From the NCBI GenBank assembly GCA_964016885.1, contig OZ024745.1, positions 127,534,001 to 127,598,000 of the forward strand: DNA of 64,000 bases, in the 5' to 3' direction. Position 1 is the stretch's first letter, and each line of letters opens with the position of its first letter. Both the position numbers and the translations under genes were made by a program. This DNA is from Eledone cirrhosa. Its lineage: Eukaryota. Below the pieces are notes generated by a model. That model had not been told where the DNA came from. It did no database searches and saw only the letters and a program-made list of their open reading frames with translations. Below, piece after piece: positions 5,961 through 63,621 of the stretch.

Positions 5961-7075
5961 GACCAGGTCTGATATCTAAGGATAAATTCCTCCCTTCCTC
6001 TCATCAGTTTTCGTGAAGGATTAATGGGCGCTGCTCCTCTTCCTTTGACTAATCTAAGAAGGAAAAAAATGTCATTTAGACATGTTCTGATATTGCAATG
6101 TTTTTAGGGGCCGAATGGTTTAGAGGTTAGCTTCATTATCACGATAACCACGATTGTGTCCTATTGCGTGATATACAAGGCAATTGTCTTTTACAATAAT
6201 GTATGCAGCAAGTAACAGTGTTGAGACGGTGTATGGTAGCATACAAACACATATATTTAGTATTGGTGCTCTTAAGTAGCTATGTATATATGAATGTATG
6301 TATAGTATATTTGATAATATACATTCATATATACATCGCTACTTCAGAGCAACGATACTAATACCTAATTTTTCCTGGACCGGCAACCCCTCTGTTTAAT
6401 CAGTTCTTAAACATTACTGGAATTCTATAAGAATCCAGCTTCTATAATTCTCGGCAGAAGCGAAGAGGTAAGTAGTCTTGATAACAGCTAACGAGCGAGA
6501 AACAGGACTGTCGATTACTCCCCTTTGTTTTTGCCGAGAATAAATAAGTGATTAAAATTCATACCGAATGGTCTTCAAAATGTTTTTAATTAAACATACA
6601 GAATATTATCAAATAAACTATACATACATGTATATTTGTTGTAGGCTATCTTTCGGAGACGATGTTACCTCTAAACGTGCTCCTCCTTGGCTACCATATT
6701 CATGGACAGGCACTGTGTTACTGTGCAAGAAGAAAATATGGAAGTTTATCGAATGAATTTCAACTTCTTTTAAAAGGTATCTCCATACTCACAGTTTTAA
6801 AATTGCGAATCATTTCTATTTGCCTCCTTCAGAAACAATAAGATTTGGTTTTTATTAATCAGTGTACATTAATTATATAATATACAGTTTTATCTAGTTA
6901 TGGTATAATGTGTTTTACTAATTATTGTCGTATAATTCTACACACTTCGACAACCATTCTTCAAACCAGTGACGAAGTCCATAATGAATGTCAGCATTCA
7001 GAATGGATGGCTGATAACGAGAAAGCTTTGTTTTTTTCGTCGGTATTGTTAAATTGTTTCATCCTGTTTCCAACA

Positions 7076-7173
<98 letters not shown>

Positions 7174-7862
7174 GAAAAACTCAGATTACATTTATTGTAT
7201 TCAGCCATGTAGAGCGAAATTTTGTTTATATATATATATATATATATAATAAAATATAGAGAAAAATACTGCAGGTAGCACATGGATAACATGTAATAAA
7301 ATGAGTCCCTCATCAGTGATTTGCCGACGATCATAGATATTTCATTGCATTAAAAATCATATACCTCACGTCGGTGCAATAATAACCAAAATAAGTTATT
7401 AGGACAATTGAAACGCGTAAAGCGAGTGAGACAGGAGAACAACAAAGAGTATAGCTAACCGTAGGGGAAAGAAACAAGCTTCAAAAATTATTCTGTTTAG
7501 CATAAGCTAGGTGAATATATGAGCGCTTTTAGAACAGACCCGACACGAGCGAGGGCTATGTGAGAAGAGAGAAAAATAGCCTTCGTGGTGTACAGGATGA
7601 AATGAAGAGAAGAGAAACAGTGAGTGAGTGAAAGTGTGAGGAAGAGTTAACTGACATGACAGAGGGGGAGAAGCAGAGAGAATGGGGGAACAGTAAGAGA
7701 GAGAGAGAGAGAAAAAACACAGAATCGCAGTGGTGAATATATGTAATAAAATATAGAGAAAAATACTGCAGGTAGCACATGGATAACATGTAATAAAATG
7801 AGTCCCTCATCAGTGATTTGCCGACGATCATAGATATTTCATTGCATTAAATATATATATAT

Positions 7863-7897
<35 letters not shown>

Positions 7898-7898
<1 letters not shown>

Positions 7899-8105
7899 AC
7901 AAAGGAAGTGTGGTAAGGAACCAGATGGACCATAACGCACCAGAGTACTCAATACTTAGGGTAGTAGATTGGCAAATAGGAAAAAGTATGACCCCGACGG
8001 CAGAGCTCAAGCCGTTTCGACGGCTATTTCTGGACTAAATTCTAATTTAGTCCAGAAATAGCCGTCGAAACGGCTTGAGCTCTGCCGTCGGGGTCATACC
8101 TTTTC

Positions 8106-8108
<3 letters not shown>
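7898..8108 (-). mobile_element. Asymmetric fold-back element family F in (TA)n
   Basis: About 63-bp inverted arms (ccccgacggcagagctcaagccgtttcgacggctatttctggac) plus about 80-bp one-sided extension; five copies in the window. Confidence 0.85.
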
Positions 8109-8137
<29 letters not shown>

Positions 8138-8138
8138 G

Positions 8139-8390
8139 TGGAAGCACGTGGCCTAGTAGTAAGGATGTTGGACTGGGTTGTGTGTTGTGTTCTTGAGCAA
8201 AACATTTCATTTCACGTTGCTCCAGTATACTGAGCTGAAAATGAGTACCAGCAGTAACTGGGTGTTTAACCCTGCGATGGACTGGCGTCCTGTCCAGGGG
8301 GAAGTCTTGTAATCTCAGTCGCTTGACGCCATGAAACCGGGATAAGCACCGGCCAAATGAGCCTTCTGGCTTAAGACAGATTTTAGACTT
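8139..8390 (+). mobile_element. tRNA-derived SINE family D (central segment resembles the MetaSINE domain, from memory)
   Basis: GTGGCCTAGTAG head, TTCTTGAGCAAAACA, AACCCTGCGATGGACTGGCGTCCTGTCCAGGGG, GAAACCGGGATAAGC. Confidence 0.75.
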
Positions 8391-9009
8391 ATTCTTGCAT
8401 GACTACATACACACACACGCACACACAAATACACACACACATACATACACACAAATACACTATGCTCTCAGCTTTTCTTGTCAACATTCAAAAGGAATGA
8501 GAAAACACATTGCAAGAGAAAAGTGTCAATTGTCTCAACTAGATAAAAAGGGATGAGGTGTGATTTAATAGAAATGGCGCAACCGGGAATTAAAACTGAA
8601 TTGCAACCCGGTTTTTCTGGAACTCACTGTCACCACATCTAAAACACAAGTACGCACTCATAAATAAATACATTAACAGAAAAAAAAAGAAAAAAAAAGG
8701 GTTAATGAGCAGAGATCAGTTTGTTGTATGAAGCTTTTTCAATCCAGTTCAGAACCGTAACCAGCTAATTATTCATGACGTAGAATAGTCAATTAAGCAG
8801 TTCACACGGAACAGTTCACCACAAACCATTTAACATGGAAGACCGGGTTCGTGGTATGAAAGCTGCTTACTCTCTCCAGTTGAACCGATGTTGCGTAGCT
8901 ATTATGTGTGCCTAACTGAGAACAAATAGCAGGATATTAACGATTTCCTACTTTAAGAAATTGCCAAGAATCAATGGATTGTAACTATTAAGCGTGAACC
9001 ATAGTAAGT

Positions 9010-13016: not shown

Positions 13017-13051
<35 letters not shown>

Positions 13052-13055
<4 letters not shown>

Positions 13056-13239
13056 AACAAGTAAGACCCCGACGGCTGAGCTCAAGCCGTTTCGACGGCT
13101 AATTCCCAGATTTACCCGTCGAAACGGCTTGAGCTCAGCCGTCGGGGTCTTACTTGTTCCTATTACCCACTCTACTACCCTAAGTATTGAGTACTTTGGT
13201 GCGTTATGGTCCACCTGGTTCCTTACCACTTTTCCTTCG

Positions 13240-13599: not shown

Positions 13600-14865
13600 G
13601 GTTATTATCTCTTTCTCTTAATTTTGAGTATATTTTTGACCGGCCACCTACCTGGTGGCAAAGTTGTAAAAGAATAGAAATTGTCATCCCTTGAATCGCA
13701 ACAATGTTTTGCAAATTTTGAAGGTGCCAGCTATCGCAGCCATTTGTAGACTATGAATTAGGGAGCTGCGCTCTTTGTCCGCAAATCCAAGTTCAGTTAT
13801 ACATTGGTCCAAGCGGGTTGGTATATAACCCGTAGCTCCAATAATTGTTCCTACTTTTGGCACAAGGCCAGCAATTACCCAGTGCATTACTGGTACTTTA
13901 TTTTATCGACCCCGTAAGGATGAAAGACAAAGTTAACCTCGGCGGGATTTGAACTCAGAATGGCAAGGGCCGTAATTATGCGTCAAAGCATGGCGTCCGA
14001 CCCTCTACGAATACTGCCAATCTACCACCTAGCTACAATAATGATGGGTATGAAGCTAAAGGTGTATCTTGGATACTGGATTTGTAAATTCCTCATCAAT
14101 GGTCTGTAGATGTCCTCCTTCTCCTGTATTTTTCTGACAACGTTTACATCAAGTGGGCAGCTGATCTCCACAACAGAACACGTTTTCAATGTGTGGTCCC
14201 AAACAACAATATCAGGCCGGTTGTGCTTTAATTTGGTGGCAATTTTTATTTTCAGGTTCCACCAGTATTCCTTAGTGCCATCTGTCTCAATATATTGTTC
14301 CTCGTTTGTTGTTAATTTTGTTTTCCGAAGTGCGTTCCAGATGGTTCTAGCTATCCCATCGTGTCTCATGGGGAGGTAGTAGCGAGATGATATTCTTTCG
14401 TAGCTGGCAACAATGTGGCTTACATCCTCGATCTTTGTTTTACATAGCCTACATTTATTGTCAGCTGATGGCCCTCCTCTTTTGTGCAGCAGATATTTGG
14501 TATGGAGTTCTTGTTCCTGTATTGCGTAGAGGTATCCCTCAAGGTGTGATGTCATAAACTTGTCGGAACTCCATACCAGGCTTTTTGAGTGGTTTATCCC
14601 CTCTATGGTCTGTATTTTACGTCTCAAGTATCCATGCACAATTTTTTCTGTAAATTGGTCAATTTTTTCATCTTGTTTGAACATTGAATAGGATCTTCCG
14701 ATTTCTCTGGGTGAGAGACTTATATCAGGCTTTATTCCATATCTCTCCTCCAGATCAGTGGCTATTCTAATAATATTTTTTTCTTCATGCTCATAAACCT
14801 GGGAAAGATGGTTGCCAACCTTTTTCCTCTGTTGAAGATGTTGCTTCAGTGAGAAGTATAACCTC
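13600..14865 (-). mobile_element. 5'-truncated R4/Dong-like RLE non-LTR retrotransposon, interrupted by SINE A
   Basis: EGYLYAIQEQEL, CRLC..EDVSHI (zinc knuckle), RHD, HNRPDIVVWD..VVEISCP..EK, PIII; resumes after the SINE as IIGATGY..LQMAAIAGTFKICKTLLRFKG*. Confidence 0.9.
13846..14029 (-). mobile_element. SINE A inserted in the RLE coding region
   Basis: 13-bp TSD tagctccaataat (13833-13845) / tagctacaataat (14030-14042). Confidence 0.9.
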
Positions 14866-14945
14866 TGTATGTATGCATGTTCATATGAGAAGTATAACCT
14901 CTGTATGTATGCATGTTCATATGTATGTATCTATATATGAATGTA

Positions 14946-20139: not shown

Positions 20140-20510
20140 GGTTAGTTTTCGCTTCTGTATGTTTTATATCAGTTAATTTATTCGGTCCTCAATGTTAACA
20201 TTGACTGACCAACGGTAAAAAATACAGATATAATATAGACACAAACACATATATATAGTCTAACAAAGTTCTTTCGTTGCACATCTGCAACATCGTCAGT
20301 GGTGCTATTATGTTTCCCCCTGTTGTATTGTATGTCTACGCCATCTTTATTTAATCTGTTTATTTATTTATTTATTTTGTCTTCTTCTCTGCGCATGCGT
20401 TTGCGTGTGTGTATAGTGTTTGATGTGTGTTCGTGTTTGGGTGACTGTGTTTTGGTTATTGTATTCTATCTTAGTTTACAAGTGTGTGTTTATACGTGCT
20501 TGGTATGTAT

Positions 20511-24720: not shown

Positions 24721-24763
<43 letters not shown>

Positions 24764-24767
<4 letters not shown>

Positions 24768-24915
24768 AACAAGTAAGACGCCGACGGCTGAGCTCGAAAC
24801 GGCTTGAGCTCAGCCGTCGGGGTCTTACTTGTTCCTATTACCCACTCTACTACCGTAAGTATTGAGTACTTTGGTGCGTTATGGTCCACCTGGTTCCTTA
24901 CCACTTTTCCTTCGT

Positions 24916-34458: not shown

Positions 34459-34572
<114 letters not shown>

Positions 34573-34751
34573 GGAGGTGAGTTTTATTGTAGTACAATAA
34601 AGCAATGCAGATATCGGATAAGAAGCACTCTACAGTTTGTGGAACTGGAGTATGTATAATATAAGATCAAAAGATGGTTAAAGGAGTTACATATATTTTA
34701 TTATAATAAAATAATAAAATATATGGAACTCCTTTAACCATCTTTTGATCT

Positions 34752-34813
<62 letters not shown>

Positions 34814-35076: not shown

Positions 35077-35137
<61 letters not shown>

Positions 35138-35284
35138 ATATGTGTGTGTGTAGAAGTTGTATTTAATTTGTTGGAATTCCGACAAACGTAAATGTTTGTA
35201 ACTTATTTAGAGCACTCAACAGTTTACTGGAGTAAATATTCCATGATATTAAATACATGGAAACTATATTTATAAAACCATATT

Positions 35285-35349
35285 TATTTTATTATATATA
35301 TTTCAAGGACAACCAAGCCAACCTTGGTGCGCTTTCATCAGATAAAATA
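35285..35349 (-). ncRNA. Putative minimal type I hammerhead ribozyme (H1)
   Basis: tattttat CTGATGA aagcgcaccaag-loop-cttggttgtcctt GAAA tatata TA ataaaata; stem I is a perfect 8 bp. Confidence 0.75.
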
Positions 35350-35483
35350 CAAAATTTGTTTTACAAATAAAGACGTACCCATGAAGATTCAACCTTATCG
35401 GTCAGAAATTGACTATCCAGTGAATTTCCAACCGATAAGGTATGTTTTTCATGGGTATGTCTCTATTTATAAAACAAACTTTG

Positions 35484-35547
35484 TATTTTATCTGATGAAA
35501 GCGTACCAATGTTGTCTTGGTACCCTTGAAATATATATAATGAAATA
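35484..35547 (+). ncRNA. Putative minimal type I hammerhead ribozyme (H1)
   Basis: tattttat CTGATGA aagcgtaccaa tgttgtc ttggtaccctt GAAA tatata TA atgaaata. Confidence 0.75.
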
Positions 35548-35639
35548 AATATGGTTTTATAAATATACTTTCTATTTATTAATATATTGTATATATATAT
35601 ATACAATATATTAATATATGTAGTGAGAAATCTGAAGTT

Positions 35640-36114
35640 ATCAGTATGTTTTGCTGATCAGGGCAAATCATACTTCTTTAAGAAAACCCACTGTACAAAT
35701 AAGAAATATGTTATATGTAAAATGAAGCCCCAGATAAATTGTAAAACTAGAAATTTAGTCTATAGCATAAGATATACAGAGGATACTTGCAGAAACATGA
35801 CAACGACATACAAAGGTGAGACAGCTCGAAGCATAAGATAAAGAATAGACCAACACTGGCGGGAGGGGGGGGGGGGGGCACTAAAAGGACAAAAAATCGG
35901 TTCAGTACTATATGAACACGCCAGACAAAGATATGATGGTAATATAGACAACATAGAAATTAAAATAATATCTAAGCATAGAAATGACTCTATCGGTAGG
36001 CAAATCAGAGAAGCAACTGAAATAGAACTAAGAAGACCAAAGTTAAACGGAAAAAAAGAATGGAAAAACAACAACCATACCCAAACAAGCAATACTGACT
36101 TAAGGGAAATATAA
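35640..36114 (+). pseudogene. GIY-YIG endonuclease domain of a Penelope-like retroelement (one in-frame stop)
   Basis: INCKTRNLVYSI..C..TYKGETARSIR*RIDQH..SVLYEH..IKII..D..RQIREATEIELRRPKLNGKKEW, all in one frame. Confidence 0.85.
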
Positions 36115-36294
36115 ATAAATAAATAAATATATATATATACACAAGTACAATAACAACAAACATATAAACACACACTAAACAGTATATACACACACAAACG
36201 CATGCGCAGAGACAGAGACAAGAAGAAATAAATAAATAAATAAATAAAATAAAAATGACGTAGACATTACAATACAATAGGAGGAAACATAATA

Positions 36295-36342
36295 GTACCA
36301 CTGATGATGTTGCAGATGTGCATCGAAAGAACTTTGATAGAC
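36295..36342 (+). ncRNA. Putative hammerhead-like motif (H2) in Penelope pLTR
   Basis: gtacca CTGATGA t gttgca gatg tgcatc GAAA gaacttt gatag; stems I and III are weak. Confidence 0.55.
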
Positions 36343-36344
36343 TA

Positions 36345-36411
<67 letters not shown>

Positions 36412-36614
36412 CTGTATTTTTAACCGTTGGTCAATCAATGATAAACATTGATTGCCAAATGAATTAACTCTGGAGATATAAAAGATATAGAAGCGAAAAC
36501 CAACCAAACAGTGAGTTTGTTCTGTTATTATTTCTGGCAATACTATAACAATATGACCCTCCCCAAGTATAACAATGTTTGTTTCGACACAATTTCATAT
36601 CAAAAACCTTGCCA

Positions 36615-36700
<86 letters not shown>

Positions 36701-48798: not shown

Positions 48799-48866
<68 letters not shown>

Positions 48867-48870
<4 letters not shown>

Positions 48871-49058
48871 AAAACGTATGACCCCGACGGCAGAGCTCAA
48901 GCCATTTCGACGGCTATTTCTGGACAGAAATAGCCGTCGAAATGGCTTGAGCTCTGCCGTCGGGGTTATACTTTTTCCTATTTCCCACTCTACTACCCCA
49001 GTATTGAGTACTCTGGTGCGTTATGGTCCATCTGGCTCCTTACCACAATTCCTTTGTT
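48867..49058 (+). mobile_element. Fold-back element family F
   Basis: Arms gagctcaagccatttcgacggc / gccgtcgaaatggcttgagctc. Confidence 0.85.
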
Positions 49059-49203
49059 ATATATATATATATATGTAAAGTTCTATTTAGATTGTTGGGA
49101 TACAACAAGCAAATATTTTTATAACTGATATAAAGCACTCAACAAATATTTGGAGTAAAAATACGATATTAATAAATGGAAACTATATTTATAAAACCAT
49201 ATT

Positions 49204-49268
49204 TATTTCATTATACATATTTCAAGGACACCAAGTTAAATTATGGTGTGCTTTCATCAGATAAAATA
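49204..49268 (-). ncRNA. Putative hammerhead ribozyme (H1) in element 49076-49385
   Basis: tattttat CTGATGA aagcacacca-loop-tggtgtcctt GAAA tatgta TA atgaaata. Confidence 0.75.
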
Positions 49269-49380
49269 TAATATAGAACAGTTTTATAAATAAATATTGA
49301 CATACCCTTAAAGAATGCAACCATTACTGTTGAATTATGTATAATGAAATAAATATGGTTTTATAAATATAGTTTCCATT

Positions 49381-49483
<103 letters not shown>

Positions 49484-49538
49484 AGTTTATCCCGGGCTCA
49501 ATCGGGGATAACCACAGTAAGTAAGGTACTCAATACAA

Positions 49539-50100
<562 letters not shown>

Positions 50101-56233: not shown

Positions 56234-56320
56234 CTTCCCTCTCTACCCTGATTGAATATAATGATAATAATATTAATAATAATAATGATAATAAGAATTA
56301 TTTCTTTATTTTATTTTATT

Positions 56321-56355
<35 letters not shown>

Positions 56356-56430
56356 TGATAATACTAATAGTGATAATAATAATAATAATAAAAATAACAT
56401 CAATGATTGAGACTCAAAGAACAATAATAA

Positions 56431-56461
<31 letters not shown>

Positions 56462-56466
56462 AATAA

Positions 56467-57456
56467 TAGAGGACTGTGTTCAGATGGAGAAAAACAACCT
56501 ACACAAATACGTGACTGATAGTAGGGAGCCAATGCTCAGAATTGTACTGAAGGAGAGGACAATAGACCAGGGGATGTCCAAGGAGGAAATAACAACAAGG
56601 AGAAAGAGAAACCTTCATGAAAAATCCCTTCATAGTACCTTCTTTGAGAAAACTGAATTCAGAGATCCACAGACATGGAACTGGTTGAAAAGAGGAGACC
56701 TTAAAACGGCTACAGAAGGAATGCTAATGGCTGCGCAAGAGCAGTCCCTCAAAACGAAGTGGCTGAAACACCATATTTACAAGGAGTAGGCTAGCCCACT
56801 GTGTAGGATCTGTGGAGAGAGAGAGAGGAGACTGTGGCTCACATTGTATCCGAGTGTAAACACCTAGCCCAGACCCACTATAAAGGCTGGAGACATGATG
56901 TGATGGGCAGGGCGATCCACTGGCACCTATGCAAAGTAAACAATTTACCACATTCTGAGAAGTGGTATGAGCATAAGCCAGAGTCGGTGATAGAAAACGA
57001 TCAGGTGAAGGTGCTATGGGATTTTAGGATACAGACGGACAAGAAACTGGGACACAATAGGCCTGACCTGGTGGTTTTGGACAAGGAAAAAAACGTGCCT
57101 GATTGTGGATGTGGCCTGCCCATTCGACACGAGAGTGCAAGAGAAGGAGAGGGAGAAAATTAACCGATACCAGGACCTAAAGTGGGAGGTGAAAAGGATT
57201 TGGAACTGCCATGAAGTCAAAGTGATCCCGACTGTCATAGGCGCACTAGGTACTGTCTCAAAAAGTTTCCAGGGATGGTTAAAGAAAATTGGCCCCGCCA
57301 CGCTTTTTGGAACGCTTCAAAAGGCATGCTTGCTGGGAACAGCAAGAACCCTCCGATACGTCATGAATATCTGAGGCTGCAGGTAGTGGCTTGATATTCA
57401 TTTCAACAAACTTTCCAGTTAACTAACATCAATGACTGAGACTCAAAGAACAACAA
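56467..57456 (+). mobile_element. 5'-truncated R4/Dong-like RLE non-LTR retrotransposon in (TAA)n
   Basis: TEGMLMAAQEQSL, CRICG..ETVAHIVSEC, RHD, HNRPDLVVLD, DVACP..EK..Y, VIGALG, LQKACLLGTARTLR; one stop and two frameshifts; (TAA)n on both sides. Confidence 0.92.
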
Positions 57457-58029: not shown

Positions 58030-58120
<91 letters not shown>

Positions 58121-58208
58121 GATATATTAACAAATGGAAACTTCCAACAGAAATGGTCGCATTCTTTAAGGGTATGTCAATATTTATTTATAAAACTGCT
58201 CTATATTA

Positions 58209-58273
58209 TATTTTATCTGATGAAAGCACACCATAATTTAACTTGGTGTCCTTGAAATATGTATAATGAAATA
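58209..58273 (+). ncRNA. Putative hammerhead ribozyme (H1) in element 58120-58365
   Basis: Motif identical to the 49204-49268 copy. Confidence 0.75.
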
Positions 58274-58495
58274 AATATGGTTTTATAAATATAGTTTCCA
58301 TTTGTGTATATATCGTATTTTTACTCCAATAATTTGTTGAGTGCTTTATATCAGTTATAAAAGTATATATTATTATTATTGCGTGTGTGTGTGTGTCTAT
58401 GTGTGTGTGTCTAAATGTGTGTATGTGTGTGTGTCTATATGTGTGTATGTTGTGGTGGTGATGGGGGCTGTTCACAGTTAGCGAAATGATGCTGA

Positions 58496-59649: not shown

Positions 59650-60290
59650 TACAGTTACATTTGACGGAGTTGTTCAGAACGGTTCTATTATACTGGATAT
59701 TGCTATATAATAAGATAAATAATTCTCCATATAAATATAGACAAATGTCTGAATATATTTCCCCTAAATTAACGTTCAAGTGGTCTTCCTTTTCCTTCTT
59801 CTTTAACAATGTTTGTTTGATAATTTATTTAGCTTCGTTAAATTAACAATATTCTGAAAACATTCTCAATGTTGAACATTTTTGAATCCACAAATTATTC
59901 TAATCTCACAACTTGGAAATAAAATTTCAACATCTTTCGTAACTCATATTTGTTTATATAAACAATCAATGCATACACAACTTATTAATATATAGAGATA
60001 TTTATATACATATAATCTATCCTAATGTAATAAGATAAAAATACTTACAACCATAATTCTTCATATAATTTTATAACTCATAATATAGGTAACAAAAATC
60101 TTGTGCCCCAAATTAACGTTATTCTTTTCTCTTTCTCTTCCTTCCTTATCATAAATATTTAAATTGTCCATAGCGTCTAAAATAACGTTTTTTCAGCCCT
60201 TTAATATACATATCATTTGCATACTCATATTAATAATTTTAAATATCTAACTTTTCTTCTCTCTTCCCTTCACTTTCCAGGGATAACTTG
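59650..60290 (-). pseudogene. Possible highly decayed L1/Tx1-like RT region
   Basis: Minus-strand YEYAND (degenerate YADD) near 60213-60230; purine-rich coding-like strand. Confidence 0.3.
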
Positions 60291-60343
60291 AACCGTTAAA
60301 GTATATTATCCTTGGTCATGTCAAATATTTATAAAACATTTTG

Positions 60344-60405
60344 TATTTTATCTGATGATAGCGTACCAACATTTTTAGTACCCTTGAAATATATATAATA
60401 GAATA
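60344..60405 (+). ncRNA. Putative hammerhead ribozyme (H1), diverged copy
   Basis: tattttat CTGATGA tagcgtacca-loop-agtaccctt GAAA tatata TA atagaata. Confidence 0.65.
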
Positions 60406-60444
60406 AATATGGTTTTATAAACATAGTTTCCATTTATTTAATAT

Positions 60445-60530
<86 letters not shown>

Positions 60531-63334: not shown

Positions 63335-63516
63335 GTTTAACCCCGACGGCAGAGCTCAAGCCGTTTTCACGGCTATTTCTGGACTCCAGAAATAACCGTC
63401 GAAACGGCTTGAGCTCTGGCCGTTAAACATTTTCCTATTACTCATTCTACTACCCTAAGTATTTAGTACTCTGGTGCGTTATGGTCCATCTGGTTCCTTA
63501 CCACACCTCCTTCGTT
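63335..63516 (+). mobile_element. Fold-back element family F
   Basis: ccccgacggcagagctcaagccgttt..gtcgaaacggcttgagctct plus extension. Confidence 0.85.
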
Positions 63517-63621
63517 ATATATATATATAATATTTAATATAGAAATGGGTTCTTCAGGACTAGAACTGTTTCATTCGAAGGAAATCATCAGGGCTTCCCT
63601 GCTAATTTTCCTCGAATGAAA

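Follow-up and report, generated by a model that had tools for sequence, protein, structure and literature searches.

Inverted, 5'-truncated copies, a one-sided tail of 30-40 bp and a bias towards (TA)n targets have been described for Penelope-like elements (PLEs), and members of the Hydra clade are known to carry DKT, RWK and CxCX5C motifs as well as a C-terminal GIY-YIG, to be devoid of CCHH and to be generally shorter than 3 kb (PMC8557442). The same paper already describes Hydra-1_Obim of Octopus bimaculoides, which has a different hammerhead from the one treated here, and lists the formation of PLE tandem and inverted structures as open (Craig et al. 2021). For the anole Poseidon element PAc, it has been reported that reverse transcription starts at two adjacent sites, that both strands are cut, that the protein is predicted to dimerise and that the ribozyme is assisted by protein (PMC11167929). 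PLE hammerheads have a palindromic helix III for dimer cleavage and may form dual motifs on opposite strands 100-700 bp apart; most motifs are solitary, which was attributed to truncated PLEs (PMC4209133). Besides, a repeat annotation of O. vulgaris counts Penelope-like families and nowhere uses the word 'ribozyme' (PMC13282606); the repeat library behind it may hold the family described below.

Here, we analysed a 64,000-nt stretch of Eledone cirrhosa DNA (contig OZ024745.1, positions 127,534,001 to 127,598,000; hereafter, the window) and searched the genome it belongs to (3.0 Gb in 1796 contigs). With a probability of roughly 0.8, the hammerhead motifs of the window are those of the pseudo-LTR or 5' leader of a Hydra-type PLE, and the (TA)n-embedded pieces that carry them are truncated insertions, likely primed at two sites.

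Hammerhead motifs and their conservation

Type I hammerhead motifs lie at 35285-35349 (-), 35484-35547 (+), 49204-49268 (-), 58209-58273 (+) and 60344-60405 (+) and share the order stem I, CTGATGA, stem II, GAAA, palindromic stem III and UA. They have the CUGANGA / GAAA / UH core and three stems and are open at stem I; stem III is AUAUAUAU or AUAUGUAU and forms only a weak self-duplex (-3.2 or -2.2 kcal/mol). A relaxed hammerhead pattern gave 14 overlapping matches at eight distinct sites in the window, with 1.12 expected, and none of 100 shuffled windows reached 14. This search confirmed the positions and the order of parts given in a preliminary description of the window, and its predicted cut of the plus-strand copy agrees with ours (H17 = 35539). 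The motifs at 49204 and 58209 are identical, so the five are not independent. On the other hand, the hammerhead was the minimum-energy monomer fold in none of the five (z -2.2 to -0.2), the one at 60344 having a damaged stem II (-5.8 kcal/mol, z -0.22), and in an Rfam scan of the window no hammerhead family appeared among the best 150 of 239 matches, which held only microsatellite-driven miRNA matches, all below the gathering score.

The covarying stems noted in the preliminary description are found again when 23 natural variants, picked by hand from related families, are aligned. Here, the core is invariant, 12 of 17 stem pairs show two-sided change and a change of stem III from TATATA to TGCGCA preserves the palindrome; 96.4% of cells are paired, and the outcome of 0 in 500 shuffles is not a probability, as the aligned sequences are related. 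A core better conserved than its flanks, likewise to be expected, was seen for one class of change and not for the other. Among 147 of 163 arms, gathered without using the core (the remaining 16 were left out, their upstream part being non-homologous), private mutations affect the core at 0.91% and the flanks at about 0.83% (p = 0.67), while shared subfamily variants occupy 1 of 12 core columns versus 43 of 70 flank columns (p = 0.0009). Private changes being equal and subfamily variants sparing the core, selection acts on the propagating element: inserted copies decay neutrally, the core is conserved between subfamilies, and the ribozyme matters to the lineage of the element, not to its inserted copies.

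Linkage to a Penelope-like reading frame

Upstream extension of copies reached an ORF with RT and GIY-YIG, and the order that emerged is 3' UTR, ACTATCC, hammerhead, S1 (+105), S2 (+193), ATG (+243), RT/GIY-YIG ORF. The unit measures about 3.9 kb (ORF about 2.25 kb, 3' UTR 1.4-2.0 kb, leader 0.24 kb). The hammerhead lies 1.4-2.0 kb past the ORF stop and, in partial tandems, also about 240 nt 5' of the ATG; its distance to the open frame is 237 nt in L124 and 233 nt in L126. A motif of ~45 nt (TATAT..CTCC..TTGAG(T/C)GCTTTA) follows both S1 and S2 in long copies. In 27 of 30 loci bearing the post-S2 motif, the ATG comes directly after it, and 21 of the 30 have a recognisable hammerhead upstream. 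In the subfamily of the window copy at 35150, the ORF start lies 25-26 nt further on in 9 of 12 loci, with hammerhead and start together in 6 of 12. The window itself contains a longer 5'-truncated arm (59706-60452, +), in which ~640 nt of 3' UTR and the 60344-60405 hammerhead run to S1; it is 94-95% identical to L103 and matches the DNA upstream of the hammerhead in the ORF-bearing L130 at 71% over 869 columns. The preliminary description was thus right in proposing PLE-linked, (TA)n-embedded type I hammerheads with a palindromic stem III. Its further proposal of a distinct non-coding family is not supported, given that the leader, including that of the 35150 subfamily, runs straight into a PLE ORF start and that the inversion junctions described below vary between copies.

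A protein search of the genome gave 131 matches at 79-100% identity, and 130 candidates were scored. Among eight long copies read, the longest open frames have 743, 658 and 628 aa, and none is clearly a fully intact ORF. The motifs comprise RW(R/H), DKT, RDD, CxCX5C and CxxC/CxH, and CCHH is absent. The position aligned with RWK reads RWR, RWH or KWQ; DKT is present in five copies (L124, L125, L126, L128, L129), with DKA in L063; the CxCX5C linker with flanking CxxC/CxH and no CCHH is intact in L125, L126, L129 and L131, the linker being damaged in L124 and L128. Database homologues of the ORF number 31, at 31-42% identity, and hardly any of them is named. Foldseek with a model of the ORF (pLDDT 61) returned RT structures (best E 2.5e-6; TERT, E 3.6e-5), a PDB sequence search using the ORF alignment returned 0 matches, tblastn of the ORF against the window gave no match, and neither the ORF nor the neighbouring endonuclease fragment had a significant match in Pfam. 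A single ORF with RT and C-terminal GIY-YIG, on which Pfam is silent, together with partial tandem (pLTR) or inverted forms, a one-sided tail and a hammerhead, corresponds to an EN+ PLE, and the motifs, rather than a tree, suggest its placement in the Hydra clade. As a separate observation, a near-full-length copy in L063 has lost its RT core and is enclosed by a 2.1-kb inverted duplication that takes in host flank (611-2724 vs 6925-8956).

The endonuclease fragment at 35617-36108 was considered as a coding partner of the window copies and rejected, as it shares 48-51% identity with another PLE, in L062, matches the Hydra-type ORF at E 0.086 only and lies in a flank absent from other 450-bp copies. 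It is part of a decayed endonuclease and 3' end at 35617-36620 (48-51% to the ORF in L062) that we take, from its motifs, to be Neptune-like. This remnant has a hammerhead-like motif of its own (36301-36344), with relatives near 20300 (-) and 18450 (+) in which stem II covaries. Another hammerhead-like family (CTGATGATTTC...) is present at 49534-49595 and 63545-63610, the 49534 copy being itself folded back. A further family embedded in (TA)n, its arms asymmetric around a central palindrome (7976-8109, 13051-13163, 24763-24838, 48866-48981, 63346-63423) probably represents PLE ends as well. Besides, the window holds decayed non-LTR retrotransposon ORF fragments (14022-14930, -; 56295-57374, +), presumably of the restriction-like endonuclease type judging by motif, and an abundant SINE-like repeat of ~190 bp at 177-357 and about 15 other sites.

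Arms, ends and the origin of the inverted copies

The stretch 35150-35600 is one lopsided inverted insertion and not a pair of separate elements. Its long arm (35150-35410, -) consists of leader, hammerhead (35285-35349, found by pattern match) and a tail of ~88 nt ending at S2 (+193), beside which lies a (TA)n target array (35078-35141); 259 of 271 positions are identical to the long arm of L035. The short arm (35411-35589, +) comprises leader and hammerhead (35484-35547, predicted to be cut after 35539) up to S1 (+105), followed by TA, and is identical to L045 at 187 of 199 and to L035 at 175 of 198 positions. At the inversion junction (35405-35418), the short arm starts at the ACTATCC 5'-end hotspot, and the copy switches there from an L035-type long arm to an L045-type short arm. 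While 39 of 40 inverted pairs have arms with a likeness of 94% or more (median 98%), this pair (35341/35492) is the outlier, with arms 88.8% alike and each 97.9% identical to a different locus; copying from two templates and later conversion both fit. The two-subfamily copy is known from the assembly alone, contigs of three runs from one sample being shorter than the junction span. The 49204-49268 hammerhead sits in an S2 arm of the other subfamily (49075-49332, -; 94-98% to L113/L125), joined by a short inverted S1 arm (49330-49403, +; +36 to +107) without the first half of the core. The 58209-58273 hammerhead belongs to an arm (58141-58366, +; 96% to L113/L125) whose tail ends short of S2, next to a 22-nt inverted stub of an S1 end (58120-58141, -).

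Genome-wide, a 23-mer from the start of the ribozyme occurs 17,169 times without mismatch (reversed control, 0), and the count for a sister family with TGCGCA as stem III is 21,712; the post-S2 motif has 483 against the 17,169 for the leader, a rough ratio since the two counts use different patterns. For a census of ends, the first 100 listed matches on contig 1 (88 loci) were chosen by core match only, and searches biased by query shape were kept out of these statistics. Half of the loci (44/88) contain an adjacent inverted pair: 42 pairs are S1/S2, one is S1/S1, none is S2/S2 and five are unclassed. Hence, 42 of 43 classifiable pairs combine one end of each kind (two of these loci duplicate each other), and the sole S1/S1 pair sits in a three-piece locus. 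Unpaired arms in the 88 loci number 24 S1, 24 S2 and 10 other. In the sister family (23 loci plus the window), nine pairs are S1/S2 and one is S2/S2; exceptions to the one-end-of-each rule are L241 and L106. The window pair of this family (34571-34764), one S2 and one S1 end, has both inverted arms stopping at about +48, close to its predicted ribozyme cut. A TA run follows 63 of 68 S1 ends and 55 of 64 S2 ends, that is, 118 of the 132 mapped ends. At the other side, the 5' ends of 43 of 98 arms fall within -6 to +12 of ACTATCC, 28 reach further upstream and 27 stop earlier. The inversion junction varies from copy to copy. Of 41 S2 arms, 18 go no further than S1, and the remaining 23 overlap with the arm opposite. 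A start near the ribozyme cut site is seen in 1 of 41 S2 arms.

These ends are consistent with the following route. The endonuclease would nick both strands of a (TA)n stretch, one nick priming reverse transcription at S1 and the other at S2, with the ~45-nt motif after each start site positioning the protein. The two cDNAs would run towards the RNA 5' end, often stopping at ACTATCC, a likely transcript start, and then be joined head to head. The template RNA would mostly be uncut; the ribozyme would need to dimerise or be helped by protein in order to cut, probably serving to process tandem read-through RNA. Because 28 of 98 arms and most ORF-bearing copies continue past ACTATCC, some templates start elsewhere, and the reading of ACTATCC as a transcript start is limited to that extent. 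Besides, the 5' ends of the sister family pile up about 18 nt upstream of the motif equivalent to ACTATCC, at a palindromic hexamer, and microhomology could thus explain the hotspot.

Three other origins of the short copies were weighed. The same element might have gained its inverted arms by fold-back of one cDNA, or by hairpin repair or conversion after insertion on a single template, the mixed arms of the 35150 copy being due to later gene conversion. The near-identity of arms in almost all pairs agrees with this, and hairpin centres are break-prone. Fold-back alone, however, does not account for a second arm that ends at the other of the two fixed sites regardless of which arm is longer, or for the S2 arms with little or no overlap (the 18 of 41 above), and the subfamily switch coincides with the junction; we regard this route as unlikely.

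A self-standing non-autonomous element, resembling a retrozyme or SINE, would have its short leader copies transcribed and re-inserted by PLE protein. This would suit the roughly 35-fold excess of short copies over ORF starts, a recurring form of ~450 bp (at least 40 copies near 90% identity, in a search biased towards the query shape) and ATTTGCATA, a presumably octamer-like motif 33-56 nt upstream of the 5'-end hotspot in seven long copies (L145, L132, L148, L103, L162, L118, L189). ATTTGCATA also occurs at window position 60216 and is conserved across subfamilies, making it a candidate promoter element. Yet copies beginning at ACTATCC do not include this upstream motif, those ending at S2 have no second copy of the ~45-nt motif beyond it, leaders are ORF-linked in the subfamilies checked, and junctions vary. 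Nor did a retrozyme, which the preliminary description named among the bearers of such hammerheads, find support: tandem hammerhead arrays were absent from 87 loci, of which only three have a second ribozyme on the same strand at most 600 nt away, never more than two in a row. A non-autonomous element is therefore quite improbable. Finally, a DNA element of the MITE kind, with long inverted repeats at its termini and bearing a hammerhead by chance, could be read from the 365-nt near-palindrome and the recurring size of 450 bp. It is contradicted by variable junctions and S1/S2 ends: in place of symmetric ends and a constant interior there are asymmetric arms with a fixed 88-nt overhang and a variable centre, half of the loci have a single arm nearby, and the sequence is linked to an RT ORF, which makes this origin extremely improbable.

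Within the preferred reading, two-site priming of truncated PLE copies, we tentatively propose a two-headed ribonucleoprotein, in which a tandem RNA element sets one start per nicked strand and the arms may be copied from different RNAs, the 35150 copy being a frozen example; we hold this to be possible, at somewhat less than even odds. If true, a single mechanism would account for the presence and length of the tail as well as for the inverted pLTR, and the dimer-requiring hammerhead would gain a partner.

Comparison with described systems

The element resembles Hydra-clade PLEs in its C-terminal GIY-YIG, DKT and CxCX5C motifs, absence of CCHH, type I hammerhead and (TA)n targets, and departs from them in reading RW(R/H/Q) instead of RWK, in a unit of about 3.9 kb, including a long 3' UTR, instead of less than 3 kb, and in a tail of about 88 nt instead of the 30-40 bp given for PLEs; its hammerhead differs from that of Hydra-1_Obim, whose protein is homologous and, by eye only, clearly distinct (PMC8557442). 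With minimal/type I PLE hammerheads it shares the palindromic helix III and the occurrence as solitary or opposite-strand dual motifs, whereas stem I (8 bp) and stem II (8-11 bp with a mismatch) are longer and the cut triplet is AUA (PMC4209133). Like metazoan non-LTR retrozymes, the copies are short, low-GC, non-coding PLE-derived repeats with a type I hammerhead, but they are dispersed as single or inverted arms and not arranged in head-to-tail tandem arrays (PMC7229834; bioRxiv 10.64898/2026.07.22.740005). In the accessible literature, a scope outside which Repbase, Dfam and subscription journals fall, we found no description of this hammerhead, of a one-site-per-strand rule or of a repeated motif after the start sites.

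Another parallel is Anolis Poseidon, in which two internal start sites likewise define the tail, targets are AT-rich and the RNA template is uncut (PMC11167929). Its start sites lie inside the ORF, however, and those of the present family in the 5' leader; it shows no strand preference between sites in vitro, whereas the genomic pairs here have one site per strand; and the repeat of one motif after each start site sets the present family apart. Inverted arms, one-sided tails, (TA)n targeting and hammerheads have thus all been published for PLEs, and what is added here is the ~88-nt tail, the RNA motif repeated after each start site and the two-subfamily window copy. The family is a very abundant one of Hydra type, its short hairpin copies being easy to mistake for MITEs, SINEs or retrozymes. 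Its mapped start sites, the repeated motif as a candidate protein-binding site, the one-site-per-strand rule and the two-subfamily copy provide handles on how the tandem and inverted structures of PLEs are formed.
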